Source of the DNA: an uncultured bacterium
GTDB lineage: Bacteria > Omnitrophota > Omnitrophia > Omnitrophales > Aquincolibacteriaceae
DNA length: 64,000 bases
Assembly (NCBI GenBank): GCA_964373045.1
Contig: CAYJSI010000001.1
Span: 31,650-95,649 of the forward strand
Direction of reading: 5' to 3'
Below, in pieces: positions 9,431 through 60,213 of the stretch. The position numbers and the translations under genes were made by a program. The notes beneath the pieces are model-generated. The model did no database searches. It was not told the DNA's origin and was given only the letters and a program-made list of their open reading frames with translations. How positions within the stretch are numbered: the stretch's first letter is position 1; every line of letters starts with the position of its first letter.

Positions 9431-9431
9431 T

Positions 9432-11807: not shown

Positions 11808-11813
11808 AAGAAA

Positions 11814-23837: not shown

Positions 23838-23845
23838 TTTCAACC

Positions 23846-30967: not shown

Positions 30968-32131
30968 ATGAAGATCATTCCCTACAGTCGCCAAACTATT
31001 CTCGCGCAGGACATCCGGGCCGTTTCACAAACCTTGCGCGCGGGCTGGATCACCCAGGGCCCCAAAATTTCCGAGTTTGAAAGCGCTATCGCGCTCTATT
31101 GCGGGGCCAAATATGCCGTGGCTGTCGCGAATGGAACCGCCGCGCTTCACTTGGCCTGTTTAGCCGTCGGATTAGGCAAGGGAGACGAAGCCGTTACGAC
31201 TCCGATCTCTTTTCTTGCAACTTCAAACGCCGTAATCTATGCGGGAGCGACGCCTGTATTTGCGGATATCGATTACGACACCATCAATATCGATCCTGAA
31301 AAAATCCGGACTCAAATCACGGCGAGGACAAAAGTCATCTTGCCGGTTGATTTTGCAGGGCTTCCGGCCCCCATGAAAGAAATTAAAAAATTGGCCTCAC
31401 GACACGGCCTGGCGGTCATTGAAGACGCCTCTCACGCCCTAGGGGCCCGGTATGACCGGACCGCAAAAGTGGGGTCGTGCCGGTATTCCGATATGACGAC
31501 GTTTAGTTTTCATCCCGTAAAACATATCACGACAGGGGAGGGCGGGTGCATCACCACCAACAGCCGCGTCCTTTATGAGAAGCTGAAGGCCCTTCGAAGC
31601 CACGGCGTTTATCGCAACAGCGGCGTGCAAAAAAAACTGGGACCCTGGTACTACGAAATGAAAGAGCTTGGGATGAATTATCGACTCACCGACTTCCAGG
31701 CCGCCTTGGGGATGTCGCAGCTGAGACGTCTCGAGCAGTTCATTGAGCGCCGGGACCTGATTTGTAAAAGATATGACGAGGCCTTCCGCGATCTGAAAAA
31801 AGTGCTAAAAATTCCGACGCAGAAAATCCTGCAGGGAAGTCACGTCCGGCATTTGTATTTACTCCGTTTAGCGGCAGAGCGGCCCGCCCCTTTACGGCGC
31901 CGGCTCTTTGATTATTTGCGGGCTAACCGTATCCAACCGCAAGTGCACTACATCCCTATTTACCGCCAACCGTATTACCGGCGTTTCTTTCAAAATAAGA
32001 AAGTGCGCTGTCCTCAGGCGGACCGTTATTATGATGAAGTGCTCAGCCTTCCTCTCTATCCTGATATGAAAGAGCATGAAATCCGTCACACGATCAATAC
32101 CGTAAAAAGATTTTTCGGCTCATTTTTATGA
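30968..32131 (+). CDS. pseC: UDP-4-keto-6-deoxy-HexNAc C4 aminotransferase (DegT/DnrJ/EryC1 family), PseC-like
   Basis: IIPYSRQTI...GPKISEFE...SFHPVKHITTGEGG (catalytic Lys motif typical of PseC). Confidence 0.65.
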   Translation: MKIIPYSRQTILAQDIRAVSQTLRAGWITQGPKISEFESAIALYCGAKYAVAVANGTAALHLACLAVGLGKGDEAVTTPISFLATSNAVIYAGATPVFADIDYDTINIDPEKIRTQITARTKVILPVDFAGLPAPMKEIKKLASRHGLAVIEDASHALGARYDRTAKVGSCRYSDMTTFSFHPVKHITTGEGGCITTNSRVLYEKLKALRSHGVYRNSGVQKKLGPWYYEMKELGMNYRLTDFQAALGMSQLRRLEQFIERRDLICKRYDEAFRDLKKVLKIPTQKILQGSHVRHLYLLRLAAERPAPLRRRLFDYLRANRIQPQVHYIPIYRQPYYRRFFQNKKVRCPQADRYYDEVLSLPLYPDMKEHEIRHTINTVKRFFGSFL

Positions 32132-33168
32132 TTAAACGTGTTTTGATTAGGGCCGATGCCCATAGCCGGGTCGGGTACGGTCATCTCATGCGTTCAATCG
32201 CTTTGGCTCAGGCCTTGAGCAGGGAAGGAGTCGCGGTCAGCTTCTGTACCGCCACTTCCGAGGATTCCCTGTGTCGTTATTTACAAGCACAAGCCTTCCC
32301 GACGCACTTTTTAACTCTCTCCGAGAAAGAATTAGGCTCCGACCGGGATCTGGAACAGATGCAAAAATGGATCGCCTCGCCGCCGGATTGGGTGGTGTTA
32401 GACAACGAATATTTTGCAACATCATACCAAACGCTAGTTCGCGAGACTGGGGCACGTCTACTTGTGTTGGATGATCACAATCGACGAGATTTTGATGCCG
32501 ATCTCATCGTCAACCATTCTCTTCATGCGGAAACTCTGGGATATAAAAAAGGGGGCGGGTGTCGGCGTCTTTTGGGACCTCGTTATGCCTTAATTCGCCA
32601 GGAGCTTCTCGATTTTCCACAAACTGAAAACAAATGCCTACGGCACGTGCTCGTCACGTTAGGGGGAAGTCCTCAGGAGGAAATGTATAAAAAAATTCTC
32701 ACTGCTTTATCGCAAATCAAAACCCACGAACTCCAAATACGGCTATTAGCGGGGTCGTCTCAGCGATCGGTTATTCAAAGCTTAACGGCCAAATTTCACT
32801 CTCATGAGATCGAGCTTTGCGAGACAAGTTTCGACTTGGCATCACTCTATGATTGGGCCGGTTTAGCAGTTTGCGCAGCAGGTGGCACTTGTCTTGAGCT
32901 ATGTTTTTTTGGCGTGACAGGACTTGTTGGAGCGTTGGAGTCTTGTCAGCTACCCGTTACTGAATCCCTGGCTACAGCGGGCATATTTCAGTCGATCGGA
33001 GATTACAGGGCAGCAAAACCGGATGATTTAGCTCACGCGATAAGTCTACTCCTAAAATCTCCCTCAGAGGAAAATGTTAGATGCACAAAAATCGGACGCC
33101 TTATAGACGGAGGGGGGGCGAATCGTATTTTAGATGTAATAAAAATGATTACTAATGACATCCTATAA
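32128..33168 (+). CDS. pseG: UDP-2,4-diacetamido-2,4,6-trideoxy-beta-L-altropyranose hydrolase (PseG-like, GT-B fold)
   Basis: N-terminal RADAHSRVGYGHLMRSIALAQAL matches the PseG signature R.D....G.GH..R...LA. Overlaps pseC by 4 nt. Confidence 0.55.
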   Translation: MIKRVLIRADAHSRVGYGHLMRSIALAQALSREGVAVSFCTATSEDSLCRYLQAQAFPTHFLTLSEKELGSDRDLEQMQKWIASPPDWVVLDNEYFATSYQTLVRETGARLLVLDDHNRRDFDADLIVNHSLHAETLGYKKGGGCRRLLGPRYALIRQELLDFPQTENKCLRHVLVTLGGSPQEEMYKKILTALSQIKTHELQIRLLAGSSQRSVIQSLTAKFHSHEIELCETSFDLASLYDWAGLAVCAAGGTCLELCFFGVTGLVGALESCQLPVTESLATAGIFQSIGDYRAAKPDDLAHAISLLLKSPSEENVRCTKIGRLIDGGGANRILDVIKMITNDIL

Positions 33169-33184
33169 CTAGTAAGAATAGTTA

Positions 33185-33213
33185 TTGACACTAAATAACC
33201 ATCATGCTAAAGT
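33185..33213 (+). promoter_or_regulatory. Sigma70-like promoter TTGACA-17 nt-TAAAGT
   Basis: Seen in the 66-nt gap after pseG, 22 nt upstream of the HTH ORF. Confidence 0.35.
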
Positions 33214-33234
33214 TACACCTCCCAAATCAACAAA

Positions 33235-33522
33235 TTGGATAACCGAGGCCCTATGGAAATCAATGAAAATGAGGTTTATACGACTGCAGAAATGCGGCAA
33301 ATCTTGAAGATTAGCCAGAGCACGGCGATGCGAATGCTTAAAACCGGTCTTATTCGTGCCGCGAAAGTGGGAAAGCAATACCGGATCATGGGAAAAGAAC
33401 TTTTGCGCCTTGTTTCACCTAAACTCGAAGACGAAGTGGGCAAAATTTACAACAAGGGACGGAGCTGGGTTCATGAGGGGGTCGGTCAAAACCCTAAATC
33501 GGTAGCGCAAAATGAGCTTTAA
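33235..33522 (+). CDS. Helix-turn-helix DNA-binding protein, excisionase/MerR-like family
   Basis: YTTAEMRQILKISQSTAMRMLKTGLIRAAKVGKQYRI matches the excisionase-family HTH pattern. It carries a C-terminal extension and overlaps the pseB start by 11 nt. Confidence 0.45.
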   Translation: MDNRGPMEINENEVYTTAEMRQILKISQSTAMRMLKTGLIRAAKVGKQYRIMGKELLRLVSPKLEDEVGKIYNKGRSWVHEGVGQNPKSVAQNEL

Positions 33523-34582
33523 GGAATTATTTAAAGGTAAGACCGTCTTAATCACCGGCGGTACCGGATCTTTCGGAAAAAAATTCACGCGAAAAGTCTT
33601 GCAAGAATGCCACCCTAGGCGTTTGATCATTTTTAGCCGGGACGAATTCAAGCAATTTGAATTGTCCCAAACTATCAGCCCGAAGGACCACGACACCATC
33701 CGCTATTTTGTCGGCGATGTTCGCGATAAAGAGCGCCTTTATCGTGCTTTTCATAAGGTGGATTACGTAATTCACGCCGCCGCCTTGAAGCAAGTTCCCG
33801 CCTGCGAATACAATCCCTTTGAAGCTGTAAAAACCAACATTCTTGGAGCTCAAAATGTCATCGATGCCGCTATTGATCAAGGTGTGAAAAAGGTCCTTGC
33901 CTTAAGTACGGATAAAGCGGCCAATCCTATCAACCTTTACGGTGCGACAAAATTATGCTCCGACAAACTTTTTGTTGCAGGTAACTCATATTCCGGCGCG
34001 GACAACTGTTGTTTTGCCGTAGTGCGGTACGGCAATGTCATCGGCAGTCGCGGCAGCGTTATTCCTTCTTTTCTCGAGCAGCGTAAAACAGGTGTGTTAT
34101 CAATCACAGACCCTCAAATGACTCGCTTTTGGATCACGTTGGATTACGCTGTTGATTTCGTACTTTCTTGCTTGGAATCCATGGTCGGCGGGGAGCTTTT
34201 TATCCCAAAAATTCCAAGCATGAATATCATGGACCTTGTGAAAGTTATTGCACCTAAATGTGCCACGAAAATCATAGGCATTCGGCCCGGGGAAAAGCTT
34301 CACGAAGTTTTGCTGCCTCAAAATGAAGCCCGAAAAACCTTAGAACTGGAAACTCATTATATTGTCCAGCCTGATTTTGAGTTTTGGGGAAAGCGGTTTA
34401 TCAAAAACAGTGGAAAACCAGTCGCGCATGACTTTGAATATAACTCGCAAACGAACCCATACTTTCTCGCCGCTGATGAGATGCGCAAAATTATCGTCGA
34501 ACAAATGGAAGGATTCGGCGTGCTTGATGAAGCGATTGAAAAAAGATATAAAAAAGATAAAGCGAAAATGAGGGTTTGCTGA
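33512..34582 (+). CDS. pseB: UDP-N-acetylglucosamine 4,6-dehydratase (inverting) PseB/FlaA1
   Basis: Near-identical signature blocks to PseB: KTVLITGGTGSFGK, FVGDVRDKERL, HAAALKQVP, EYNPFEAVKTNILGAQNVIDAA, LSTDKAANPINLYGATKLCSDKLFVAGN. Confidence 0.8.
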   Translation: MSFKELFKGKTVLITGGTGSFGKKFTRKVLQECHPRRLIIFSRDEFKQFELSQTISPKDHDTIRYFVGDVRDKERLYRAFHKVDYVIHAAALKQVPACEYNPFEAVKTNILGAQNVIDAAIDQGVKKVLALSTDKAANPINLYGATKLCSDKLFVAGNSYSGADNCCFAVVRYGNVIGSRGSVIPSFLEQRKTGVLSITDPQMTRFWITLDYAVDFVLSCLESMVGGELFIPKIPSMNIMDLVKVIAPKCATKIIGIRPGEKLHEVLLPQNEARKTLELETHYIVQPDFEFWGKRFIKNSGKPVAHDFEYNSQTNPYFLAADEMRKIIVEQMEGFGVLDEAIEKRYKKDKAKMRVC

Positions 34583-35805
34583 TGATTCGATGCACGAAAT
34601 GCGTGATGCCCGAGACCCAGGAAACGATTCATTTTGATAGCGAGGGCGTATGTAGTGTATGTCGCCAGCATGAGTATAAGCAAAACGTCAAATTCGATGG
34701 GCCGCAGAAAAAGCAAGAGTTTGATTCTCTGATCCAGCAATACCGGGATAAATATGACTATGACTGCATTGTGCCTTTTAGCGGTGGCAAGGACAGTACG
34801 TTTACGCTTTATCATCTGGTTAAGGAATATAAAGTTAAGCCGCTCGTGGTTCAGTTCGATCACGGATTTTTCCGCCCCAAGTTGCTTGAAAATAACAAAC
34901 GCACATTTCGAAAATTAGGCGTGGATGTTCATAGCTTTGCGCCGAATTGGCATGTTGTTCGAAAGCTCATGCTGCAGTCCTTGCTTGAGAAAGGCGATTT
35001 TTGCTGGCATTGTCATACCGGTGTTTATTCCTATCCCATGTGGGTGGCCATCCGCTATAAAGTACCGCTTGTAATTTGGGGCGAGCCCTCAACGGAATAT
35101 ACTTCTTACTATAGTTACGACCAGCAGGAAGAAGTAGATGAAAAGAGGTTTAATCGAATTGTTAACCTTGGTATTAACGCGGACGATATGGCGCTGCGTC
35201 TGCAAGGGGCTCTTGAGGAGCGCGATTTAAAGCCATTTAAGTATCCTCTGTTAAAAGAACTAAAGGCACTTAATTACCGCTCCGTTTGCCTTGGATCTTA
35301 CCTCCCTTGGGATACAAAAAAACAGGCGCAGGTGTTACGTGAAAACTTAGGATGGGAAGGGGATGAAGTCGAAAATGTCCCCCCAGTTTATCATTACGAA
35401 AAAATCGAATGCTACATGCAGGGAGTACGCGACTATTTAAAATATATAAAAAGAGGTTTTACTCGTCCTACGCATCTCGCTTCACTTGATTTGCGCAACG
35501 GCCGAATGACAAAGGATCAGGCCCTAGAAATGATTCGGCAATATGAAGGGAAACGCCCGGCGAGTCTTGATATTTTTTTGCAGCTACTGGGAATCACTGA
35601 AGAGGAATTTATGGAGATTGCGATGAGCCATGCGGTCTCTCCTTACGAACACGATCCCACCAAAGTTTCGTCCGGAAAAAAGACAAAAGATTTCGATCAA
35701 TGGAGCCAGGAAGGAGCGATGTCTCACGATGAAGCTCTTAAGCAAATACGAAGGTGGCGTGATAAATCCGAGAAGAAGTCCGAGACCGAAATACAAATTG
35801 AATGA
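34576..35805 (+). CDS. pseA: N-acetyl sugar amidotransferase (PP-loop ATPase; WbuX/PseA-like)
   Basis: SGGKDSTFTLYHL PP-loop, plus an N-terminal Cys-rich motif (CTKC...CSVC). Confidence 0.6.
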   Translation: MLMIRCTKCVMPETQETIHFDSEGVCSVCRQHEYKQNVKFDGPQKKQEFDSLIQQYRDKYDYDCIVPFSGGKDSTFTLYHLVKEYKVKPLVVQFDHGFFRPKLLENNKRTFRKLGVDVHSFAPNWHVVRKLMLQSLLEKGDFCWHCHTGVYSYPMWVAIRYKVPLVIWGEPSTEYTSYYSYDQQEEVDEKRFNRIVNLGINADDMALRLQGALEERDLKPFKYPLLKELKALNYRSVCLGSYLPWDTKKQAQVLRENLGWEGDEVENVPPVYHYEKIECYMQGVRDYLKYIKRGFTRPTHLASLDLRNGRMTKDQALEMIRQYEGKRPASLDIFLQLLGITEEEFMEIAMSHAVSPYEHDPTKVSSGKKTKDFDQWSQEGAMSHDEALKQIRRWRDKSEKKSETEIQIE

Positions 35806-36431
35806 ATGGGTCTGTGATCGGGGTTGTCGATTATGCTCGCGGAAATTTGCTTTCGATCATGAATGCGCTCCGAATGATTCCGGGTGTGAAGCTGGTCTTA
35901 TGCCGCACCCCCGAGCAGATCATGAAAGCGGATCGTATCATCTTACCCGGGGTCGGCGCTTTTGGAGATGGAATGGCCAATTTAAAGTTTTCAGGCCTCA
36001 TCGAGCCACTGCGGGAAGCAGCGTTAAATAAGAAAAAACCATTTCTGGGAATTTGTTTGGGTATGCAGCTTCTGGCCCGCAAAGGTTATGAATCGGGCGT
36101 CTATGATGGCCTTGGCTGGATAGACGGCGAAGCTATTCGACTAGCGCCGGAAGATCCTAAATTTAAAGTTCCGCATGTAGGTTGGAATGATGTTCAATGG
36201 AAATCGAACAGCCCTATTTTTCAAGGGTTGCCAGAATTTCCGGATTTTTATTTCGTTCACTCTTATTATCTAAAGTGTGATGCAACTCACATTGACGCCA
36301 CAGTGGATTACGGGGGGCGGGTAACAGCGGCCATTCGCAAAGAAAATATTGCCGGGGTGCAGTTTCATCCTGAAAAAAGTCAGGATATGGGACTCAAAAT
36401 TTTAGAGAATTTTGTAAATTGGAACCCCTAA
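35802..36431 (+). CDS. Class-I glutamine amidotransferase, HisH-like (WbuY-type)
   Basis: IGVVDYARGNL...ILPGVGAFGD...GICLGMQLL...HVGWN...FHPEKS are GATase catalytic-triad motifs. Confidence 0.7.
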   Translation: MNGSVIGVVDYARGNLLSIMNALRMIPGVKLVLCRTPEQIMKADRIILPGVGAFGDGMANLKFSGLIEPLREAALNKKKPFLGICLGMQLLARKGYESGVYDGLGWIDGEAIRLAPEDPKFKVPHVGWNDVQWKSNSPIFQGLPEFPDFYFVHSYYLKCDATHIDATVDYGGRVTAAIRKENIAGVQFHPEKSQDMGLKILENFVNWNP

Positions 36432-36439
36432 GTTAGCAA

Positions 36440-37234
36440 ATGCTAAAGAAGCGGCTTATTCCCAAGCTGTTATTAAAGCGGCGCCTGATCGATCGGGCTG
36501 AAAAACTTGTGCTGGTGACATCATTGATGTACCGTGATTTTTTTGAAATTGGCGATCCGGTTTCGCAGGCAAAAATTTACGAAGCCCAAGCTGCTGATGA
36601 ACTACTTTTTCTTGATCTTGACCGCTCCCTTTTGGGACCACAACGTGACATGCTGGGACAAGTCATCGTGAAAGTCGCTGAAGAAATATTTATGCCGTTG
36701 ACTGTGGGCGGTGGAGTTCAGACGTTAGATGATATTAGGTTCTTGCTTTTAAACGGTGCCGATAAAATTAGCATCAATACCAGTGCGCTTGAAAATCCTG
36801 GATTGATTAATGAGGCCGCTTGCGCCTATGGCTCGCAGTGCGTTATCGTGAGTATCGATTTTCGAAAAGACGAGTTCGGTTCCTATTGGGTTTGGGCTAA
36901 TGGAGGGAAAATGAAAACGGATTATGACCCCGCTTCTTGGGCAATCGAGGCTGAGAAAAGAGGCGCCGGAGAAATTCTGCTTTCCTCCATTGATCGCGAC
37001 GGCACGCAAACAGGTTTAGAGCTTGAGGTCGTCCGTGATGTCAGTAACCGTGTCTCGATTCCGGTCATTGCGTCGGGGGGATGCGGTGTCGCCAAACATT
37101 TTATTGAAGGTTTTTATCAGGGTAACGCGGATGCGGTAGCCGCGGGAACCTTTTTCGCTTCAAAAGATCAAAGTCCAATGCAGACAAGATCTCATCTTAA
37201 AAATGCCGGCATACCTATACGAACTCATTTTTAA
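36440..37234 (+). CDS. Imidazole-glycerol-phosphate synthase cyclase subunit HisF-like (WbuZ-type)
   Basis: (beta/alpha)8 HisF motifs: LTVGGGV, IDRDGTQTG, VIASGG. Confidence 0.7.
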   Translation: MLKKRLIPKLLLKRRLIDRAEKLVLVTSLMYRDFFEIGDPVSQAKIYEAQAADELLFLDLDRSLLGPQRDMLGQVIVKVAEEIFMPLTVGGGVQTLDDIRFLLLNGADKISINTSALENPGLINEAACAYGSQCVIVSIDFRKDEFGSYWVWANGGKMKTDYDPASWAIEAEKRGAGEILLSSIDRDGTQTGLELEVVRDVSNRVSIPVIASGGCGVAKHFIEGFYQGNADAVAAGTFFASKDQSPMQTRSHLKNAGIPIRTHF

Positions 37235-37260
37235 AACCGTCTTATGAGGGCGCTTCCATT

Positions 37261-38286
37261 ATGAAATTCGGGAAAATAAAACGATTAATTTTGTTCGGAG
37301 GATCAAAACTGATGGTTGAATTTATCAACCGCTTAGATTTTAAGTTTTATGAAGTGGTTGTGTTCACAGATCCCCGCCATTTGGAAGAAATGGCTTCGCG
37401 CGAAAAGCTTACGCTTCAAGCTTGTTTGGAGAAAGCAAGAATCCCTTATTTCTGCGCGCCCGATATAAATTCGGATCCTCATTTAGAAAGCTATATCGAC
37501 AAGCAGACGTTAGGTATCGGAATGGGTGAAGTTTGGAAGTTTTCAAAAAAAATAATCGAGTTATTTGAAGGCAAACTGGTTGACCTTATGGCCATTCCAT
37601 TACCGCAATTCCGCGGGGGAGCTCATTATTCGTGGCAAATCCTTTCCCAGAGCTTTAAGGGAGGGTCTCACATTCAAATTATCAATGAGGCTATGAGACC
37701 CGGCTGCTTTGATTCCGGCGGAATTATCAAAGCTTATTATTACCGGTTTCCCACCGAAGCAAGAACACCTCAGGATTATTTTGATTATGCTGGAAAAATT
37801 GATTTGGAATTCCTGTTGGAATTTTCACAAGAGATCCGCGACGACATAGATTTTACTATGATGTCGATACGAGAAGATATCAGTAGCTATTTCCCGAGGC
37901 TTAACACGCAACTTCAAGGGTTCATCAATTGGGGTTGGAAAGTCGGGGATCTGGACCGGTTTATCTGCGCCTTTGGCCGGCCTTATGCAGGCGCCTCCAC
38001 ATTTTGCAATGCGCAGCGCTATTACCTCAGGGAATCCCAAGTTATTTATGATGAAGGATTGTTTCACCCCTTCCAGGCGGGACTTATCTACAAGAAAATA
38101 GATCACGAACTTTACATTGCAGCAAACGGTGGGACGCTCATTATTCGCGAAGTTTTGGATGAAAGCGGCAATCCTGCCGATAAGGAATTAGGTATAGGTA
38201 TGCGTTTTTACACTCCCGCGGAACGTCTTGAAAATGCCATGCTGCTCGTGGCGGAGTATGACCGATATGAAAACACAAAAGTCTGA
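37261..38286 (+). CDS. Formyltransferase-family protein (Fmt/ArnA N-terminal-like), candidate sugar N-formyltransferase
   Basis: LPQFRGGAHYSWQIL and IQIINEAMRPGCFDSGGII align with the Fmt LPRYRGAAPIQWAI / MDEGLDTGDI catalytic region. Confidence 0.45.
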   Translation: MKFGKIKRLILFGGSKLMVEFINRLDFKFYEVVVFTDPRHLEEMASREKLTLQACLEKARIPYFCAPDINSDPHLESYIDKQTLGIGMGEVWKFSKKIIELFEGKLVDLMAIPLPQFRGGAHYSWQILSQSFKGGSHIQIINEAMRPGCFDSGGIIKAYYYRFPTEARTPQDYFDYAGKIDLEFLLEFSQEIRDDIDFTMMSIREDISSYFPRLNTQLQGFINWGWKVGDLDRFICAFGRPYAGASTFCNAQRYYLRESQVIYDEGLFHPFQAGLIYKKIDHELYIAANGGTLIIREVLDESGNPADKELGIGMRFYTPAERLENAMLLVAEYDRYENTKV

Positions 38287-38845: not shown

Positions 38846-38863
38846 ACGGAAACAAGAACTTCC

Positions 38864-40204
38864 ATGAACATGTTAGAACTCTTAAATAAAATTTATATGC
38901 TACGTCTTGCACCTTCTTCACCTGATACGACCCTCGGCAATAAGATATTAAAAAATGAATTGCCATTTCGTACGCACGAATTTGAACCGGATCAGGAATG
39001 GAACGGATGGGTGGTTCCAAAATCGTGGAGTGTAAAGAAGGCATCAATTAGGAAAAACGGTAAACTTATCTATGATGGAATGGCTCACCCCCTTGGAGTC
39101 ATTGGGTACTCGCAATCTTTCAGCGGAACTATTAGCCTTGAGGAGCTTCAATCTCACCTTTTTTCAGATACCTCTCGCCCGGAAGCCATCCTTTATCACT
39201 GCGCCTTGTATTACCGTATGATGCTCAAACAATGGGGTTTTTGCATCCCTCATAAGCTTCGCGAGAGGCTGGAGAACGGGAAGTATGAAGTTGAGCTTGT
39301 CACGTCTTTCATAAATGCTCCAATGCAAGTGCTCGATTTTACTTTGCCGGGTGAGACAGAAAACACGCTGGTCTTGAACGCGCACAACTGCCATGCTGCG
39401 CAAGCCAACGACGGCACCAGCGGGATTGTCGTGGGAGTCGAATTAATAAAGCGTTTGATGCAGAAAAAGAATCGTCGACTCAGTTACAAGCTTGTCATTG
39501 CACCGGAGCATTTGGGGACCGTTTTTTATTTGTCGTGCCTTCCTGATGAGGAAGCGGCTAACCTTAAATACTGTATTTTTTTAGAAATGCTTGGCTCTAA
39601 AGGACCTTTTGCTTTACAGGAAACGTTTACAGGCGCTAGCTTGCTTGACAGGGCAAGTCATCACGTGTTGCAGCATTCGTTTCCGGATTATTTTTCCGAT
39701 AAATTCCGTAAGATTGTCGGCAATGATGAAACCGTTTGGGAGGCGCCCGGTTTGGAGATTCCAACGATATCCTTATCTCGCTTTCCCTATAACGAATACC
39801 ATACAAATTTCGATAATCATGAAATTATTCTTGAGTCTAAACTCGAAGAGGCCGTAACGGCCGGCCTTGACGTGATAAATATTCTGGAAACCAACACGTA
39901 CCTCAAACGGCGCTTCAAAGGTCTCGTGGCCCTTTCTAACCCTAAATACGATTTGTATATGCACACGCGGGATCCTGCCGCAACACCGAATGTAACCTCA
40001 ACGCAAAAGAAATGGAATTACCTCATGGATTGCCTACCGCGCTGGTTTGATGGAAAAACTTCAATTCTAGATATCGCGGAAAAGCACGATCTGCCTTATC
40101 GCCAGGTCTATGACTATCTTAAACGGTTTGAACAAAAAGAACTGGTTGAGTTTTGTCCACTAGAGCAGGCGGCGTTTTCCGCATCGTTGCCGGAGTCCAA
40201 CTAA
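38864..40204 (+). CDS. Hypothetical protein with a peptidase-like (M28/DUF4910-type) domain
   Basis: 446 aa. HNCHAAQANDGTSGIVVGVELIKRL is reminiscent of an aminopeptidase-like fold. Assignment is weak. Confidence 0.25.
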   Translation: MNMLELLNKIYMLRLAPSSPDTTLGNKILKNELPFRTHEFEPDQEWNGWVVPKSWSVKKASIRKNGKLIYDGMAHPLGVIGYSQSFSGTISLEELQSHLFSDTSRPEAILYHCALYYRMMLKQWGFCIPHKLRERLENGKYEVELVTSFINAPMQVLDFTLPGETENTLVLNAHNCHAAQANDGTSGIVVGVELIKRLMQKKNRRLSYKLVIAPEHLGTVFYLSCLPDEEAANLKYCIFLEMLGSKGPFALQETFTGASLLDRASHHVLQHSFPDYFSDKFRKIVGNDETVWEAPGLEIPTISLSRFPYNEYHTNFDNHEIILESKLEEAVTAGLDVINILETNTYLKRRFKGLVALSNPKYDLYMHTRDPAATPNVTSTQKKWNYLMDCLPRWFDGKTSILDIAEKHDLPYRQVYDYLKRFEQKELVEFCPLEQAAFSASLPESN

Positions 40205-40210
40205 CTTAAT

Positions 40211-41134
40211 ATGAAGGATTATTTGCAGGCAGATCTGATAAGAGCCCTTCAAGAAATTGGGCTTAAGAAAGGTGATGTCGCGCTGGTATCCACAGAGCTT
40301 TTTGCTATGGGGAAACTAAAAACGGCCCAGACTAAAGAAGAGCTCTGTCGTCTTATTTGTGAAGCCATTTTGAGTATCATCGGCGCAGAGGGCACCTTGG
40401 CGGTCAATGCCTATACGACTTATACCCAGCGATACGGCCTTCCGTTTGACCGGGAGCGGTCCAGGCCAACAACTGGTGTTTTCAGCGAATATATTTTGTT
40501 TCATCCTGACAGCATCCGAAGCACGCATCCGATCCACTCCGTCGCGGCACTTGGAAAATACAAAGAAAAAATATGCTTAGATACGAGCCCGTCGAATTAT
40601 GGTTTTGATTCGCCGGTTGACCGAATGTTAAATTTGAATTGTCAAATTCTCCGTTTGGGTGTTGATTTCGGTGACAATGTCTTTACTCATTACGTCGAGG
40701 GACTTTACGGGCTGCCATATTTTTATAACAAACTACTTGATGTGGACGTGGTTGTTGATGGAAAAAAAACGGACCGACTTTTTTTTGCGACCGTCCGCCA
40801 CCTGAATTTGACGATGGAAGATAATTACGAGCCAATTAAGGCTGCCTTGGTCAAAGCGAAACGGGTTTATTCTGCCGCCGTAGGCGATGGGTGGGTACAT
40901 CGAATAGACGCAAAAGAATATTGCCGGACATTAATTGAACTGCTTAACCAAAATCCATGGGCACTTGTAAAAAATCCACCCAACTTTAAAAAGGGGGAAA
41001 TCCCATTTGATGGGGCCACTAAAGGACGCGATGGGGTTGAAACGAGGGCCAATTTTTTGTTTGAGGAATTGCGCGGCACCAAGAGCCAAAATCAAGAGCC
41101 GATCTCCCTTCCTAAGTCCGCAGTCGCGAATTAA
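40211..41134 (+). CDS. AAC(3)-family (Antibiotic_NAT) N-acetyltransferase-like protein
   Basis: N-terminal DLIRALQEIGLKKGDVALVSTELFAMG matches the AAC(3) signature (L..LGV..GD.LLVHSSL...G). Confidence 0.5.
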   Translation: MKDYLQADLIRALQEIGLKKGDVALVSTELFAMGKLKTAQTKEELCRLICEAILSIIGAEGTLAVNAYTTYTQRYGLPFDRERSRPTTGVFSEYILFHPDSIRSTHPIHSVAALGKYKEKICLDTSPSNYGFDSPVDRMLNLNCQILRLGVDFGDNVFTHYVEGLYGLPYFYNKLLDVDVVVDGKKTDRLFFATVRHLNLTMEDNYEPIKAALVKAKRVYSAAVGDGWVHRIDAKEYCRTLIELLNQNPWALVKNPPNFKKGEIPFDGATKGRDGVETRANFLFEELRGTKSQNQEPISLPKSAVAN

Positions 41135-41188
41135 CTTACTCGTTTCTTTTACTGTCGTAGAAATACATTGAAAGGTGTTCCGATAAAA

Positions 41189-42103
41189 ATGGAACTAGGT
41201 CTTGGAACCGCCCAACTTGGACTCGATTATGGAATTACAAATGCCAGAGGAAAAGTGTCTGAGCGGGAAGCTGAAAATATTCTGAAAGCAGCCATCAAGC
41301 ATGGAATTGAATTGTTTGACACCGCGCCAGGATACGGCACGAGTGAGGAAGTCCTCGGAAAATTATTACTCCCCAATTCTCGATTTAAGATAGTGACGAA
41401 AGTGCCTCGTTTTGATAAATCGGTACTTGTTCCTGAGGATTGCCACAATTTACTTGCGGTTTTTCATCGCTCACTTAAAAAATTAAGGCAAGATGCGGTT
41501 TATGCGCTACTTTTCCATTATCCTCAAGATCTTTTGACGGACGGAGCCGAAGGACTTTTTGAAGCGGCGCAAGCTCTAAAAATAGAGGGAAAAATAAAAA
41601 AAATCGGTGTTTCTGTATATACGCTTGAAGAAGCAGAAATGATTATGGGCCGGTTTCCCATCGAGGTCATTCAAATTCCAGTGAATATTCTGGACCAGCG
41701 ATTCCCGAAATCTGGGATTTTGAAAGAACTCAAAAATCGCGGTATTGAGATTCACGGCCGTTCCATTTTTTTGCAGGGGATATTGCTTGCCGATCCAGAG
41801 GCTTTGCCGTCTTTTTTCCTGCCTCTCAAACCTCTTTTGCATCAATACCAGCACACGTTGAGTAAGAAAGGATTGACGCTCATTGAGGGGGCTATGGGAT
41901 ACGTGCACCAGCTAGAAATTGATTTTACCATTGTTGGCGCTGCTTCTGAGAGTGAGTGGAAGGAATCCCTTTCGGCTTTTGAATCTGCAAAACACTTATC
42001 GGGAGTAGATTTTTCTATATTTTCCTGCGAAGACAGCGACATGATCAATCCAACGAAATGGCCGAGCGCTTCAATGAAAACCCGAAAGGCCGTGCGATTA
42101 TGA
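41189..42103 (+). CDS. Aldo/keto reductase
   Basis: MELGLGTAQLGLDYG...ELFDTAPGYGTSEEVLG is an AKR signature. The track start at 41168 is a TTG; the ATG at 41189 is preferred. Confidence 0.6.
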   Translation: MELGLGTAQLGLDYGITNARGKVSEREAENILKAAIKHGIELFDTAPGYGTSEEVLGKLLLPNSRFKIVTKVPRFDKSVLVPEDCHNLLAVFHRSLKKLRQDAVYALLFHYPQDLLTDGAEGLFEAAQALKIEGKIKKIGVSVYTLEEAEMIMGRFPIEVIQIPVNILDQRFPKSGILKELKNRGIEIHGRSIFLQGILLADPEALPSFFLPLKPLLHQYQHTLSKKGLTLIEGAMGYVHQLEIDFTIVGAASESEWKESLSAFESAKHLSGVDFSIFSCEDSDMINPTKWPSASMKTRKAVRL

Positions 42104-42834
42104 TTTTGGGGATCTTGCAAGCCAGAATGAATTCACGGCGGTTTCCCGGGAAGGTTCTGAAGCCGATTCTGGGTGTGCCTATGATTCTCCGCCAAATTGA
42201 GCGTCTAAAGCAGTCAAAAAAAATGGACCACCTCTTGGTCGCGACCAGTCGAGAGGTTTCAGACGATCCGATTGCTGAAGTTTGCCGGTATAACCGAATC
42301 GAATGTTTTCGCGGCCATTTAGAAGATGTCCTAGACCGTTTTTATCAGGCCGCCGCTTTGCACCAGCCTGAGCATGTTATTCGGTTTACGGGTGATTGCC
42401 CACTTGCTGATGCTTACGTTATTGACAATCTCGTAAACTTTTACTTAGATGGAAATTTTGATTATGCAAGCAATGCTCTTGAACCCACCTATCCCGACGG
42501 CCTTGATGCTGAAATCTTTCGATTTTCGTCCTTAGCTCAGGCCTGGAAAGAAGCTGTCGCATCTTTTGATCGTGAACATGTAACACCTTATTTTTACTGT
42601 CATCCCGAAAGATTTAAAATAGGTAGTTTAAAAGGAGCTAGAGATTTATCCAGCATGCGCTGGACCGTCGATGAAGAGGATGATTTTAAATTTGTAACCT
42701 GTATTTTCGACGGTCTCTATCACCATAAGCCGACATTCGAAATGGCCGATATTTTAGAACATCTTAAACATCATCCCGAGCTCCAAGCCATCAATGCGTC
42801 GCATACCCGCAATGAGGGGGCACATCCATGCTAA
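42100..42834 (+). CDS. pseF: SpsF/FlmC-type (COG1861) cytidylyltransferase; candidate CMP-pseudaminic acid synthetase
   Basis: ILGILQARMNSRRFPGKVL is the SpsF/FlmC motif. The ATG at 42100 overlaps the upstream stop (ATGA). Confidence 0.45.
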   Translation: MILGILQARMNSRRFPGKVLKPILGVPMILRQIERLKQSKKMDHLLVATSREVSDDPIAEVCRYNRIECFRGHLEDVLDRFYQAAALHQPEHVIRFTGDCPLADAYVIDNLVNFYLDGNFDYASNALEPTYPDGLDAEIFRFSSLAQAWKEAVASFDREHVTPYFYCHPERFKIGSLKGARDLSSMRWTVDEEDDFKFVTCIFDGLYHHKPTFEMADILEHLKHHPELQAINASHTRNEGAHPC

Positions 42835-44120
42835 CTGGTCGTTACGCACTCTCGGAGGATTTGCTTGAAAAAACCCTCCGCATTATCCCGCTAGGGACTC
42901 AAACTTACAGTAAAAGTAAAACCCAATATCCGCGCGGCGTCTCACCGTACTTTATTACCAAGGGACGCGGGAGCAGAGTTTGGGATGTTGACGGTAATGA
43001 GTATATTGACTTCGTCAACTCATTAGCTGCCGTTACATTGGGTTATAACGACCCCAGCGTTAACCGTGCGGTGCGTAATCAACTAAGGAACGGCGTTTTG
43101 TTTTCTTTGCCTCATCCACTCGAACTCGAAGTTGCCAAAATAGTTACGGAAATGGTCCCATGTGCCGAAATGGTGCGCTTTGGGAAAAATGGGTCAGATG
43201 CGACAAGCGGTGCTGTTCGTTTAGCGCGTGCCTATACAAAGCGAGATCATATCGTAGTTTGCGGGTACCATGGCTGGCAGGATTGGTATATTGGTTCAAC
43301 TTCACGGAACGCCGGGGTGCCTAAATGCGTTCAAGAATTGACCCATTCATTTATCTATAACGAAATCGATTCCTTAAAAAAACTTTTTTCAGTCTTTCCC
43401 GACCAAATAGCAGCCGTTATGCTTGAACCCATGAACAAGCAGGAACCGCGTGACGGCTTTCTCTCAACAGTTAAAAATTTAGCGCATGAAAACGGCGCAC
43501 TGCTTATTTTTGACGAAGTCATCACCGGTTTTCGCTTTGCCAATGGGGGAGCTCAGGAATATTTTGGGGTCATTCCTGATCTTGCTACTTTTGGCAAGGG
43601 GCTTGCCAACGGTTTCCCGCTTTCTGCGATTGCAGGTCGAAAAGAATTTATGCAATATCTCGAAGACATTTTCTTTTCATTTACTTTTGGAGGCGAGACT
43701 CTCTCATTGGCTGCCGCAAAAGCAACGCTTGAAAAACTTCAGAAGGAACCCGTTGTCAATACGCTAAAAAGCCGTGGGACGAAAGTCCGTTCCGGGGCAG
43801 AAAGTCTCATACAAGCTCACGATCTTGGAAATGTCATACGGATTTCAGGGCATCCTGCCTGGTCTTTTCTGAATTTTACAGATACGCCAGAGGCTAACCA
43901 GTGGCAAATAAAAACTCTCTTTTTACAAGAAGTTTTTTCGCGTGGGATCCTTACGCTTGGTAGCCACAATATGAGCTATGCCCACACAGATAAGGATGTC
44001 GAACGATTGCTTGATGTCTATGATGAGACATTTGCGATTCTTAAAAAAGCGATTAAAAGTCAAAACATTAATGACTTCTTAAAAGGCGAGGTTTTAACGC
44101 CATTATTCACGGTTCGATGA
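42828..44120 (+). CDS. Class III PLP aminotransferase (glutamate-1-semialdehyde 2,1-aminomutase-like)
   Basis: RVWDVDGNEYIDF, LIFDEVITGFR and TFGKGLANGFPLSA (Lys) are class-III aminotransferase motifs. Confidence 0.65.
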   Translation: MLTGRYALSEDLLEKTLRIIPLGTQTYSKSKTQYPRGVSPYFITKGRGSRVWDVDGNEYIDFVNSLAAVTLGYNDPSVNRAVRNQLRNGVLFSLPHPLELEVAKIVTEMVPCAEMVRFGKNGSDATSGAVRLARAYTKRDHIVVCGYHGWQDWYIGSTSRNAGVPKCVQELTHSFIYNEIDSLKKLFSVFPDQIAAVMLEPMNKQEPRDGFLSTVKNLAHENGALLIFDEVITGFRFANGGAQEYFGVIPDLATFGKGLANGFPLSAIAGRKEFMQYLEDIFFSFTFGGETLSLAAAKATLEKLQKEPVVNTLKSRGTKVRSGAESLIQAHDLGNVIRISGHPAWSFLNFTDTPEANQWQIKTLFLQEVFSRGILTLGSHNMSYAHTDKDVERLLDVYDETFAILKKAIKSQNINDFLKGEVLTPLFTVR

Positions 44121-44620
44121 CCAAACGGGTCAGGCAGTCCTCTGCCACGGCAGAAATTCTGAACCTGCGGGCGGTTCAACCGAGCGATAAAAAAATCCTA
44201 TGGGAATGGAGTAACCGGCCTCAAACGAGACGCTATTCATTCAACTCAAAACCAATTTCCTGGGCGGAACACGTTAAGTGGTTTGCCTCAAAAATGCGAG
44301 ACCGACGATGCTATTTTTATGTCGCAGAAAACTGTGGAAACCGGCCCGTGGGCCAGATTCGGTTTGAGAGAAAGGGTGAGGTAGCGATTGTTTCTTTAAT
44401 GGTCGATAAGAAATATCAAGGACGGGGATATGCCAGTGAAATGCTGACGCTTTCGTCAAAGAAACTCTTTAAAAACAACATAAAAAAAATACTGGCTTAC
44501 GTGCTGCCGCAAAATTATATTTCGTTGGAATTTTTTAAAAAGAATGGATTTAAAAAGTCGGGTTTTATTTTTGTCAATAAGAAGTCGGCTTACAAGTTGG
44601 AACTTCGGAGAAAACGATGA
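44117..44620 (+). CDS. pseH: GNAT N-acetyltransferase, PseH-like
   Basis: 167 aa. LRAVQPSDKKILWEWSNRP...VGQIRFERKGEVAIVSLMVDKKYQGRGYASEML shows PseH-like architecture. It sits between the cytidylyltransferase/aminotransferase and pseI. Confidence 0.5.
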   Translation: MTKRVRQSSATAEILNLRAVQPSDKKILWEWSNRPQTRRYSFNSKPISWAEHVKWFASKMRDRRCYFYVAENCGNRPVGQIRFERKGEVAIVSLMVDKKYQGRGYASEMLTLSSKKLFKNNIKKILAYVLPQNYISLEFFKKNGFKKSGFIFVNKKSAYKLELRRKR

Positions 44621-45678
44621 CGGGATTTATCGAAATAAGCGGAAGAAAGATCGGTCCGGGATTTCCTGCCTATGTGATAGCAGAACTTTCCGCCAATCAT
44701 CATCAGCAGCTAAGAGTTGCCACCCGGCTTATTCACGAAGCCAAAAATGCAGGCGCAGATGCCGTTAAAATTCAGACCTATACAGCAGATTCGCTCACTT
44801 TGGATTGCCGCAATCGTTATTTTAAAATCGGCGGCGGAACGCTTTGGGATGGCCATACGCTTTATGACCTTTATAAAGATGCCTACACACCTTGGGAGTG
44901 GCACCCTAAACTCAAAAAGGTAGCTGAGAAGTTAGGGCTCGGTTTTTTTTCGTCACCTTTTGATTTCGTTGCCATTGACTTTCTCGAAAATCTAAAAATG
45001 CCGGCTTATAAAGTTGCTTCATTTGAGATTGTCGATCTCCCGCTTATTCAAAAAATGGCAAGGACCGGTAAGCCTATAATTCTTTCTACGGGCATGGCAT
45101 CCTTCAAGGAAATTGCAGACGCCGTTAAGGCTGCCCGCGAAGTCGGCGCCAAGCAAATCGCACTCCTGAAGTGTTGTAGCGCTTATCCCGCGCCTTCGAG
45201 TGAGATGAATATCAAGACAATAACCCATATGCAAAAAGCGTTCAAAGTCCCGGTGGGCATTTCCGATCATACCTTGGGCATCGAAGTTCCCGTCTCAGCG
45301 GTTGCGCTTGGCGCCTGCATTGTTGAGAAACACTTTATTTTGTCCCGCAAAGAGAAAGGACCGGACAACGCTTTTTCCCTTGAACCCGTAGAATTTGCAG
45401 CCATGGTAAAGGGAATCCGAATTGCTGAAAAGGCGGTTGGGAAAGTTCAGTACGGACCCACAGCGCACGAAAAGTCGAGTTTGCCATTCCGCAGATCTTT
45501 ATTTGTGGTGGAATCAGTCACGAAGGGGGAGGTTCTAACGGCGGCAAATGTCCGCTCAATTCGGCCGGCACACGGCCTTCCCCCAAAATATCTTCCCGAG
45601 ATTGTAGGACGCCGGGCACAGAGAAATATTAAACGAGGGACTCCTTTAAAATGGGACCACTTAGCTCCGAAAAGATAA
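44617..45678 (+). CDS. pseI: Pseudaminic acid synthase (NeuB family, with C-terminal SAF domain)
   Basis: IAELSANHHQQLRVATRLIHEAKNAGADAVKIQTY and ILSTGMAS are NeuB-family motifs. A C-terminal antifreeze-like SAF domain is present (IRPAHGL). Confidence 0.75.
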   Translation: MTGFIEISGRKIGPGFPAYVIAELSANHHQQLRVATRLIHEAKNAGADAVKIQTYTADSLTLDCRNRYFKIGGGTLWDGHTLYDLYKDAYTPWEWHPKLKKVAEKLGLGFFSSPFDFVAIDFLENLKMPAYKVASFEIVDLPLIQKMARTGKPIILSTGMASFKEIADAVKAAREVGAKQIALLKCCSAYPAPSSEMNIKTITHMQKAFKVPVGISDHTLGIEVPVSAVALGACIVEKHFILSRKEKGPDNAFSLEPVEFAAMVKGIRIAEKAVGKVQYGPTAHEKSSLPFRRSLFVVESVTKGEVLTAANVRSIRPAHGLPPKYLPEIVGRRAQRNIKRGTPLKWDHLAPKR

Positions 45679-55798: not shown

Positions 55799-55800
55799 AA

Positions 55801-59003: not shown

Positions 59004-59005
59004 CC

Positions 59006-60121: not shown

Positions 60122-60213
60122 CTCAAAAAAATGACGGCGCCCACACAATCGCCCATCACGAACGAAAGAATCGGGGCTTTTAAAACTTTTAAAGCAAAAT
60201 TCAAGACGATAAC

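Follow-up and report, generated by a model that had tools for sequence, protein, structure and literature searches.

Relation to described pseudaminic acid gene clusters

Pseudaminic acids cover flagella, capsules, O-antigens and S-layers. The charge of these sugars, and how phages and the immune system recognise them, are decided by their N-substituents. To our knowledge, the understood chemistry of pseudaminic acid (Pse) is limited to the six-enzyme route to Pse5Ac7Ac and an amidotransferase step. Here we analysed a Pse gene cluster in a 64,000-nucleotide stretch of DNA from an uncultured Omnitrophota bacterium (GCA_964373045.1, contig CAYJSI010000001.1), hereafter called the window, in which the Pse genes are accompanied by a large group of putative tailoring genes. 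With slightly better than even confidence, we favour one assembly line for a heavily N-edited Pse activated with cytidine monophosphate (CMP), in which a core pathway and three tailoring modules would act on the same sugar before it is passed to a lipid-linked glycan.

In the Campylobacter jejuni Cj1295 locus, pseB and pseC adjoin genes encoding a DUF4910/aminopeptidase-like protein and an N-acetyltransferase-like protein, as they do in the window. Further genes of the same locus encode acyl carrier proteins, a FabH paralogue, a methyltransferase and an enzyme that activates amino acids. In C. jejuni the genes are poly-G phase-variable and serve Maf-dependent flagellin glycosylation, whereas such tracts and Maf are both absent from the window, which has a Wzx flippase instead; moreover, its DUF4910 protein belongs to a subgroup partnered with an Fmt-like protein and a GNAT. 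In 2010, Cj1295 was found to be genetically needed for a Pse in which the N5-acetyl group is replaced by 2,3-di-O-methylglyceroyl (PMC3068675), and its biochemical function was still unresolved in 2026 (PMC13130089).

Another DUF4910/DUF2172/HTH_47 protein, CA_C2195 of Clostridium acetobutylicum, is encoded in the cluster CA_C2186-CA_C2199 among spsE (NeuB), spsF, N-acetyltransferase genes and an acyl carrier protein gene (PMC4000134). Unlike the window, that cluster is flagellar (Maf-like) and has an ATP-grasp ligase in place of an AMP-ligase/aminotransferase fusion, and neither an Fmt-like nor a WbuX-type protein is listed for it. CA_C2195 binds one zinc via His189, Asp195 and His324 and lacks the catalytic Asp and Glu of M28 peptidases (Das et al., PMC4000134); a sugar-modifying rather than proteolytic role was proposed for it, and DUF4910 was suggested as a possible transacylase (PMC4000134).

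The general protein O-glycosylation cluster of Tannerella forsythia starts with wzx and contains Pse genes interrupted by unknown open reading frames (ORFs), the wzx-like flippase gene and methyltransferase genes; its product, Pse5Am7Gra, has one acetamidino substituent as well as an N-acyl group other than acetyl and is attached by a dedicated GT-B enzyme, GtfS (PMC6120980). T. forsythia differs from the window in having a true PseF and, by prediction, an AsnB-type amidotransferase, and the window's match to the BFO_1060 family falls below the cut-off. A nearly identical gene list, compared by annotation table only, is found in the O-antigen cluster Lp6_762-Lp6_777 of Legionella pneumophila serogroups 6/12 (PMC3694923). 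It comprises a GNAT, PseG, a class-III/GSA (glutamate-1-semialdehyde) aminotransferase, a cytidylyltransferase, an acetyltransferase, HisF, HisH, a 'lipopolysaccharide biosynthesis protein', an aldo/keto reductase (AKR), DegT, CapD, NeuB, a methyltransferase and a 'putative aminopeptidase'; in contrast to the window, genes for an AMP-ligase/aminotransferase, a carrier protein and an AAC(3)-like protein are absent from the table.

Core pseudaminic acid pathway

NCBIfam scores were judged against their curated cut-offs, and the remaining families were assigned by Pfam. The core genes and a small ORF lying between two of them are:

30968-32131, + strand: PseC, uridine diphosphate (UDP)-4-amino-4,6-dideoxy-N-acetyl-beta-L-altrosamine transaminase (TIGR03588, 474.2 against a cut-off of 423.5)
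32128-33168, + strand: PseG, UDP-sugar hydrolase (TIGR03590, 167.6 against 153.55)
33235-33522, + strand: 95-amino-acid excisionase/MerR-type helix-turn-helix ORF (TIGR01764, 31.6 against 28.8)
33512-34582, + strand: PseB, inverting UDP-GlcNAc 4,6-dehydratase (TIGR03589, 501.3 against 407.75)
44117-44620, + strand: PseH-like GNAT (TIGR03585, 55.2 against 93.1, below cut-off)
44617-45678, + strand: PseI, pseudaminic acid synthase (TIGR03586, 488.8 against 340.25)

Judged by these family models, the region encodes a real Pse pathway. On the corresponding models of other nonulosonate pathways, the PseC protein reached 230.5 for LegC (cut-off 420), the PseB protein 72.2 for LegB (cut-off 475) and the PseI protein 315.6 for NeuB (cut-off 399.65). 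A legionaminic pathway was therefore rejected, because the LegB, LegC and NeuB models all fail their cut-offs. An earlier note on this DNA had called the pathway pseudaminic and named in advance the comparison that would separate it from a legionaminic one; its outcome was clearly pseudaminic (PseB 501 against LegB 72, PseC 474 against LegC 230, PseI 489 against NeuB 316). The gene calls of that note were confirmed for PseC, PseG, PseB, PseI and the SpsF-type cytidylyltransferase, and Pfam agrees with its GNAT, AAC(3)-like, AKR, GSA-aminomutase-like and peptidase-fold proteins. Its PseH is PseH-like only; the assignment is made from context, because PseG-PseH-like fusions occur in related loci (seven genome loci and seven loci of an aminotransferase-anchored set described below, plus L081). 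No protein of the window passed the PseF equivalog (TIGR03584), its sole CTP_transf_3 protein scoring 26.8 against 205.7.

The reported O-antigen sugars of L. pneumophila serogroups 6/12 are legionaminic-type. As the same gene set lies in the O-antigen cluster of these serogroups (PMC3694923), and as a pyridoxal phosphate (PLP) enzyme or an oxidoreductase could in principle alter stereocentres after synthesis, the sugar of the window might be legionaminic acid or another stereoisomer of a 5,7-diamino nonulosonate. We regard this as very unlikely, considering that the Pse equivalogs pass where the Leg and Neu models fail widely and that Pfam found no Epimerase_2 domain or NeuC/LegG-type 2-epimerase in the region.

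The 95-amino-acid ORF lies in the 343-bp space between pseG and pseB. It also resembles MamR, has a 60% identical copy in a Doudnabacteria locus (L025) and could be a regulator or a mobile-element remnant.

Conserved tailoring modules

The tailoring genes are conserved modules and not a loose collection: the cluster combines a variant core pathway with two tailoring modules in a mosaic, each part being common alone. This pattern was traced in two sets of loci. The first comprised 79 genome loci around DUF4910 homologues and one obtained by exact look-up, which were searched with all window proteins. Loci whose DUF4910 protein is closest to that of the window (47-61% identity) were defined as type A and counted in 24 loci of at least 18 kb, and those with DUF4910 proteins at no more than 44% identity as type B (13 loci). 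Because DUF4910-anchored loci are biased, we added a second set of 80 metagenome loci anchored on the class-III PLP enzyme (AT3), of which the 37 loci of at least 11 kb were counted.

In the type-A loci, the Fmt-like gene was present in all 24, followed by the GNAT (23), WbuX (22), HisH and WbuZ (20 each), SpsF-like (19), PseI (18) and AT3 (17), whereas AAC(3)-like and AMP-ligase genes were found in only two and one, respectively. One such locus, L044, has 14 contiguous genes (PseB, PseC, AKR, WbuX, HisH, WbuZ, Fmt-like, GNAT, DUF4910, SpsF-like, AT3, PseG, PseH-like and PseI). The hosts of type-A loci include Nitrospirota, Omnitrophota, Elusimicrobiota, Margulisbacteria, Planctomycetes, Patescibacteria, Micrarchaeota, Gammaproteobacteria and others. 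The type-B DUF4910 genes often lie near an AMP-binding enzyme, and in 9 of the 13 type-B loci they have an AAC(3)-like gene beside them.

The AT3-anchored loci rarely contained WbuX (2/37) or DUF4910 (4/37), and none contained the Fmt-like gene. Because these two frequencies are so low, and because AAC(3)-like genes occur in 2/24 type-A loci, the presence of all modules in one operon is rare. The earlier note had called the density of alternative N-acyl donors in this operon unusual; what is rare is the three modules together, each of them being common separately.

Across the 160 related loci, eight further genes thus travel with the Pse genes as fixed, fusion-linked blocks, which have spread through many uncultivated bacterial phyla, bacteria of the candidate phyla radiation (CPR), DPANN archaea and, apparently, L. 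pneumophila strains other than serogroup 1. What could only be labelled vaguely as 'tailoring' can be divided into three separable units: a triad that plausibly replaces PseF; a unit of DUF4910, GNAT and pseudo-formyltransferase tied to amidination; and a carrier-protein acylation unit.

Oxidoreductase, SpsF-like protein and class-III aminotransferase

The triad that forms the first module is encoded by three consecutive genes:

41168-42103, + strand: AKR, filling the oxidoreductase slot of the triad (PF00248, 120.6 bits)
42058-42834, + strand: SpsF-type CTP_transf_3 cytidylyltransferase, presumed CMP-Pse synthetase (PF02348, 112.6 bits); true start probably at 42100
42828-44120, + strand: AT3, a class-III PLP enzyme resembling glutamate-1-semialdehyde aminomutase (PRK06209, 443.4 against 486; PF00202)

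In the AT3-anchored loci, AT3 and the AKR travel with the core pathway and not with the acyltransferases. PseI was found in 33 of these 37 loci, SpsF-like in 32, PseC in 19 and PseB in 18; an AKR was present in 17 and a Gfo/Idh/MocA enzyme in 6, i.e. an oxidoreductase in at most 23. The Gfo/Idh/MocA enzyme also takes the AKR slot in at least eight DUF4910-anchored loci, and this swap is a non-orthologous displacement. A minimal cluster of PseB, PseC, AKR, SpsF-like, AT3, PseG/PseH and PseI is recurrent (for example, L085, L086, L099 and L106) and usually has no other cytidylyltransferase; in the compact L044 and L085 the SpsF-like protein is the sole one. Additionally, SpsF-like-AT3 fusions were found 10 times in the genome loci and 14 times in the AT3-anchored loci, the latter also containing two Gfo-SpsF-like-AT3 triple fusions.

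The closest solved relative of the SpsF-like protein is an uncharacterised cytidylyltransferase (PDB 6oew, E = 4.6e-38). A full-text literature search found no description of the oxidoreductase/SpsF/aminotransferase triad, save a note on an SpsF-AKR fusion in a Vibrio Pse cluster, where it was proposed to replace NeuA (PMC7371886). In Bacillus subtilis, an spsF mutant accumulates legionaminic acid and cannot transfer it (PMC7439481). Together with this work, the association of the triad with PseI, the minimal clusters and the fusions suggest that the SpsF-type enzyme plausibly replaces PseF as CMP-Pse synthetase.

With regard to the other two enzymes, the simplest reading is an oxidation by the oxidoreductase followed by a transamination by the PLP enzyme, with PLP-dependent epimerisation as the alternative. 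The PDB neighbours of AT3 include GSA aminomutases and aminoglycoside C-6' aminotransferases/epimerases. In the formation of Shewanella Kdo8N (KdnB dehydrogenase and KdnA aminotransferase) and in aminoglycoside 6'-amination, a hydroxyl is oxidised and transaminated before the sugar is activated. The proposed logic of the triad is the same by analogy only, the proteins not being homologous as a set.

A more specific possibility, which we put forward tentatively and consider rather unlikely, is that the triad is the PseF replacement of a very widespread, undescribed Pse variant yielding a CMP-5,7,8-triamino nonulosonate, most plausibly by conversion of the C8 hydroxyl to an amino group. The AAC(3)-fold enzyme would then acylate the extra amine from the carrier, and the DUF4910 protein, the GNAT and the Fmt-like protein would edit a second nitrogen. 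If true, this would provide a function for the Cj1295 family as well. We know of no biosynthetic genes for the 8-amino nonulosonate of Tenacibaculum maritimum. That sugar, 8-amino-3,5,7,8,9-pentadeoxy-manno-nonulosonic acid of Tenacibaculum (Flexibacter) maritimum, is the only one of this kind reported (PMC3210612).

In six of the AT3-anchored loci (L139, L147, L150, L152, L154 and L157), an E1 beta-like gene lies between SpsF-like and AT3. It is related to the transketolase-like E1 beta subunit encoded in the window and hints at a further variant of the triad.

Proposed amidination and N-acyl editing

The genes of the second module directly follow pseB:

34576-35805, + strand: WbuX/PseA-type PP-loop N-acetyl sugar amidotransferase, converting acetamido to acetamidino (TIGR03573, 337 against 203.2)
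35802-36431, + strand: HisH-type glutaminase subunit (TIGR01855, 222.8 against 105.4)
36440-37234, + strand: WbuZ/HisF-like subunit (TIGR03572, 272.9 against 299.7, just below cut-off)
37261-38286, + strand: Fmt/ArnA-fold two-domain protein with D108, M110 and D151, probably not a formyltransferase
38228-38845, + strand: GNAT of the Acetyltransf_3 family, RimL/PseH-like (Pfam, 91.1 bits); start codon uncertain
38864-40204, + strand: DUF4910/DUF2172/HTH_47 M28-like protein of the Cj1295/CA_C2195 family (PIRSF015244; Pfam, 151.4, 78.9 and 22.3 bits)

The adjacent WbuX, HisH and WbuZ genes form a WbuX/WbuY/WbuZ-type acetamidino module; the WbuZ-like protein scored 212.8 on the AglZ/HisF2 model. 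In the 22 type-A loci that have it, WbuX lies inside Pse cassettes, and it is fused to PseI in L023. These findings support the assignment of the module to the Pse pathway, with Pse as the probable substrate judging from context, and agree with the earlier proposal that the PseA-like protein and its HisH/HisF-like partners form an acetamidino group.

The second claim of that proposal, formylation by the Fmt-like protein, did not survive. Pfam detects only Formyl_trans_C in this protein, and most family members are named 'hypothetical protein' at NCBI. A profile of 33 members matched Fmt (3tqq, E = 2.5e-16), ArnA and PseJ (6ci2, E = 3.6e-8). The AlphaFold (AF2) model (predicted local distance difference test, pLDDT, 92) pairs an N-terminal Rossmann-like domain with a C-terminal OB domain, and Foldseek placed both on Fmt and ArnA (E = 1e-20, template modelling score, TM, 0.72-0.74). 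The fold is shared with PseJ and the sugar N-formyltransferases ArnA, WlaRD, FdtF and QdtF, the Foldseek TM to Fmt, ArnA, FdtF and WlaRD ranging from 0.59 to 0.74. However, PseJ/ArnA-type enzymes have a catalytic Asn-x-His where the window protein has Asp-x-Met. In the hidden Markov model (HMM) alignment, the window segment VDLMAIPLPQFRGG sits on VNVHASLLPRWRGA of Fmt and FNLHGSLLPKYRGR of ArnA, in the motif N-x-H-x-SLLP-x-x-RG, so that the catalytic Asn and His of Fmt/ArnA correspond to Asp108 and Met110. Among 48 Fmt-like sequences (that of the window and 47 from the loci), D-x-M is found in 44 and N-x-H in 4, the latter kept by distant members only (33-39% identity); the position of the third catalytic Asp is Asp or His.

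Because the catalytic Asn and His are replaced, formylation is unsupported and a classical formyltransferase was rejected. The frequent labelling of this family as methionyl-tRNA formyltransferase is likely a mis-annotation, which is corrected here. Fmt-like-GNAT fusions (P0195, P0231, L002 and L034) instead suggest that the protein may be a substrate-binding or scaffold partner of the GNAT. The GNAT itself reached 32.6 on the PseH model (cut-off 93.1) and is fused to DUF4910 in other relatives (P0088, P0091, P0099, P0101, P0106 and L025).

The DUF4910 protein matches PDB 3k9t (CA_C2195) over residues 27-416 (E = 1.5e-37). The zinc ligands His189, Asp195 and His324 of 3k9t align with its H177, D183 and H313, which do not vary among 26 homologues, and P214 aligns with Pro225, indicating that the catalytic Asp and Glu of M28 are replaced and the single-zinc site is retained. 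From its context, we propose that the protein may be a mono-zinc N-acyl editing enzyme. A scan of GTDB representatives found no relative of it above 61% identity, and full-text literature searches found DUF4910 named in only three papers.

In many type-A loci, a conserved ORF of about 245 amino acids without a Pfam match lies directly 3' of DUF4910 (L009, L010 at 11293-12039, L015 with three tandem copies, L018, L019, L030, L033, L035 and L048). The window lacks this ORF, and the AAC(3)-like gene holds its position. In addition, two Omnitrophota loci (L001/L017, 12257-13632) encode a further 232-amino-acid Formyl_trans_N/C_2 protein and a PIG-L family deacetylase between DUF4910 and PseH-like. 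This pair, of which the window has no counterpart, could be a genuine deacetylase/formyltransferase, like that described as reported for Kuenenia (bioRxiv 10.64898/2026.04.20.719630).

Proposed carrier-protein acylation

The third module is split between one gene directly 3' of DUF4910 and others downstream of pseI:

40211-41134, + strand: AAC(3)-fold N-acyltransferase, Antibiotic_NAT (PF02522, 96.1 bits)
45651-48449, + strand: 932-amino-acid protein in which an AMP-binding (adenylating) enzyme is fused to a class I/II aminotransferase (Pfam, AMP-binding 228 bits)
48446-49417, + strand: M29-like (NicX-type) protein (PF02073, 37.8 bits, the sole Pfam match in the window protein)
49384-50616, + strand: 410-amino-acid S-adenosylmethionine (SAM)-dependent methyltransferase (Pfam), with a 55% identical syntenic orthologue of 409 amino acids in L081
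50613-50870, + strand: 85-amino-acid carrier protein with a GALDSF phosphopantetheine motif, an ORF in the 246-bp 'gap' after the methyltransferase

The carrier gene is unannotated and absent from lists of ORFs of at least 60 amino acids. Its product reached 20.3 bits (E = 6.7e-4) on the PP-binding model, against a cut-off of 20.8, and the syntenic orthologue in L083 passes with 30.5 bits; moreover, it is 55% identical to an 82-amino-acid ORF of L081. That locus is collinear with the window at identities of 41-66%, its gene order being Wzx, AKR, SpsF-like, AT3, a PseG-GNAT fusion, NeuB, the AMP-ligase/aminotransferase fusion (AMP-AT), the NicX/M29-like protein, the methyltransferase, the 82-amino-acid ORF and Antibiotic_NAT. 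AMP-AT, NicX and a small ORF (85-90 amino acids) are retained in L082 and L083, the order being conserved in L081 and L083. Homologues of the M29-like protein in synteny in L081-L083 match PF26233 (NicX), the one in L081 with 55% identity, and the AMP-ligase/aminotransferase fusion belongs to a large conserved family, with over 120 full-length members at no less than 49% identity. In L081, a 52% identical orthologue of the AAC(3)-like protein is encoded directly after the carrier protein, whereas the gene of the window has been relocated to 40211-41134, directly 3' of DUF4910. Aminoglycoside resistance was rejected as a function of this gene, given its best score of 75 against 270 (NF033082) and the sugar-biosynthesis context.

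By analogy with adenylation/carrier systems, we infer that this module would activate, tether and modify an amino- or oxo-acid and transfer the acyl group to a sugar amine.

WbuXYZ-type modules amidinate hexosamines such as N-acetylfucosamine (FucNAc) in other bacteria, and the WbuX/HisH/WbuZ module, the AAC(3)-like/carrier module or both might likewise act on another amino sugar of this island, which exceeds 60 kb. L082 has the AMP-AT, NicX and carrier genes together with a HisH/HisF pair and has no NeuB within 10 kb, and a second amino-sugar pathway (two DegT, HldE-like and 4,6-dehydratase genes) lies downstream in the window. We nevertheless think it unlikely that the modules act on another sugar. 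The constant position of WbuX within Pse cassettes and its fusion to PseI speak against this for the amidotransferase, and the AMP-AT gene directly follows NeuB/PseI in both the window and L081 and lies about 8.6 kb downstream of NeuB in L083.

Probable destination of the sugar

Two genes for transfer and export follow the carrier gene:

50863-52620, + strand: 585-amino-acid candidate nonulosonic-acid glycosyltransferase (sub-cut-off family matches)
52580-54073, + strand: Wzx-type MOP flippase (Polysacc_synt_3 and Polysacc_synt; MOP flippase family)

The 585-amino-acid protein has no Pfam match and no PDB sequence match. It matches weakly a surface carbohydrate biosynthesis family (TIGR04396, 45 against 125) and the BFO_1060 glycosyltransferase family (40.8 against 200), which is named after a T. 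forsythia locus. No Maf (MAF_flag10) or flagellin Pfam domain was detected in any ORF scanned across the window, and in a homopolymer scan of the whole window no run of G or C reached 8 nucleotides and none of A or T reached 10. Considering the Wzx flippase, the candidate transferase and the lack of Maf/flagellin domains and phase-variation tracts, the Pse most likely goes into a lipid-linked surface glycan, such as an O-antigen, capsule, S-layer or general O-glycan. A flagellin glycosylation island was rejected, as the window holds a Wzx-type flippase and no Maf.

Proposed route and possible products

In the assembly line that we favour, PseB and PseC, as equivalog-level homology shows, convert UDP-GlcNAc to UDP-4-amino-altrosamine, the PseH-like GNAT would acetylate the new amine, PseG strips UDP and PseI condenses the product with phosphoenolpyruvate. 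The SpsF-like enzyme would make the CMP-sugar in place of PseF, and the oxidoreductase and class-III PLP enzyme would perform an oxidation and a PLP-dependent step on the same sugar, most likely turning a hydroxyl into an amino group or, alternatively, causing an epimerisation. The ATP-dependent amidotransferase would use glutamine-derived ammonia to convert one acetamido group to acetamidino. The mono-zinc DUF4910 protein might remove or exchange an N-acyl group with its GNAT partner, and the Fmt-fold protein, having lost the residues for formyl transfer, could act as a binding or scaffold subunit. In the third module, the AMP-ligase/aminotransferase fusion would activate an amino- or oxo-acid and load it onto the 85-amino-acid carrier, where the methyltransferase and the M29-like (NicX-type) protein would modify the acyl group; a free amine of the sugar would then receive it from the AAC(3)-fold enzyme. 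The finished sugar would pass to the BFO_1060-like protein and the Wzx flippase.

The earlier note had read the dense set of alternative N-acyl donors as a sign of a heterogeneously decorated Pse or of several Pse derivatives, with the Fmt-like, GNAT, AAC(3)-like and PseH-like proteins as parallel alternatives for one amine. C. jejuni, which has a DUF4910 homologue and an adjacent N-acetyltransferase, makes many Pse glycoforms (PMC3068675; bioRxiv 10.64898/2026.04.20.719630), and the window joins modules that are usually apart, so that more than one end product is conceivable. Such heterogeneity appears doubtful to us, because these genes are inherited together in fixed blocks in many phyla and fused in relatives, a pattern that favours obligate cooperation along one pathway, with several steps towards a single complex Pse derivative, over stochastic heterogeneity. 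Moreover, the catalytic Asn and His are missing from the Fmt-like protein, phase-variable tracts are absent, and only one PseI and one CTP_transf_3 cytidylyltransferase are encoded in the gene train.

Several points weigh against a single assembly line as drawn above. C. jejuni NCTC 11168 makes the dimethylglyceroyl sugar with the adjacent N-acetyltransferase Cj1296/7 out of frame (PMC3068675, Table 1), and deacylation by DUF4910 followed by re-acylation by its neighbour may therefore be wrong. AKRs usually work in the reducing direction. The loci were retrieved by family-specific peptide patterns, which biases the co-occurrence counts to close relatives. The PseH-like, WbuZ, candidate transferase and carrier-protein assignments are all below curated cut-offs, and the steps beyond the core pathway and the family assignment of the amidotransferase are argued from context and analogy. 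If solved, this chemistry would show what Cj1295 does in Campylobacter and allow surface-sugar structures to be predicted from metagenomes.

Gene train and neighbouring genes

From 26.7 kb to approximately 62 kb, the long ORFs are almost all on the + strand and overlap or are separated by short gaps. The genes named in the earlier note were all found on the + strand at their coordinates, with overlaps or gaps of no more than 68 nt. Its interval of 30968-45678 proved too narrow: the co-directional genes begin upstream of it, at 26739/27045, the acylation module reaches 50870, and the candidate transferase and flippase genes extend to 54073. The best reading of this train is one co-directional operon-like unit from about 26.7-30.9 kb to 54 kb. 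A promoter and terminator scan of 24.5-34 kb gave counts no better than shuffles and was not used for operon boundaries. The G+C content is 0.42-0.46 over the Pse and tailoring genes (32000-54000), compared with 0.47-0.52 in the upstream flank and 0.49-0.55 at 54-60 kb. This dip relative to both flanks fits horizontal acquisition of the cassette.

The genes directly upstream of pseC are:

26739-27041, + strand: 100-amino-acid ORF containing a GGAFDSIAF motif and preceded by a strong ribosome-binding site (AAAGGAG), a possible carrier protein of uncertain membership
27045-28118, + strand: SAM-dependent methyltransferase (Pfam Methyltransf_25/12/31)
28131-29138, + strand: FabH-type beta-ketoacyl-ACP (acyl carrier protein) synthase III (NF006829, 271.7 against 249; Pfam ACP_syn_III and ACP_syn_III_C)
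29129-30124, + strand: 331-amino-acid protein with an N-terminal GNAT domain (Acetyltransf_9; Pfam, E = 6e-9)
30072-30899, + strand: 275-amino-acid protein encoded directly 5' of pseC

The 100-amino-acid ORF showed no PP-binding match at E <= 0.1 (Pfam) or E <= 0.01 (NCBIfam), and the methyltransferase matched a 2-ketoarginine methyltransferase model weakly (47 against a cut-off of 425). The 275-amino-acid protein had no match in Pfam, NCBIfam or PDB, and its single-sequence AlphaFold model was discarded (pLDDT 39); a deacetylase would be a guess. No counterpart of any of the five genes was seen in the 80 genome-derived loci (L001-L080). If they belong to the Pse system, they may supply one more acyl group.

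The entire 64-kb window is one glycan island. The genes at 280-23309 encode three PMT_2/ArnT-like GT-C proteins, a DUF2079 membrane protein, four GT2 proteins and at least five methyltransferases, in addition to a 2-oxoglutarate (2OG)-Fe(II) oxygenase, SDR epimerases, a SIS-domain protein, a flavin adenine dinucleotide (FAD) oxidoreductase and a B12-radical SAM enzyme. ORFs without a Pfam match lie at 9327-11807 (826 amino acids), at 24896-26659 on the - strand (586 amino acids) and at 23328-24882 (three of 169-175 amino acids).

Downstream of the flippase gene, 54227-63958 holds a second sugar pathway, comprising an HldE-like kinase/nucleotidyltransferase with inverted domain order, thiamine pyrophosphate (TPP)-dependent E1 alpha and beta subunits, two DegT aminotransferases (264 and 236 on the PseC model, below cut-off), a B12-binding radical SAM enzyme, an NTP (nucleoside triphosphate) transferase and a 4,6-dehydratase. 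This pathway may produce a branched or C-methylated amino sugar. Two Elusimicrobia loci (L004 and L005) have a B12-radical SAM enzyme 45-46% identical to that encoded at 60214-61911 of the window; each contains two PseI and two PseC homologues and may carry two nonulosonate pathways side by side.

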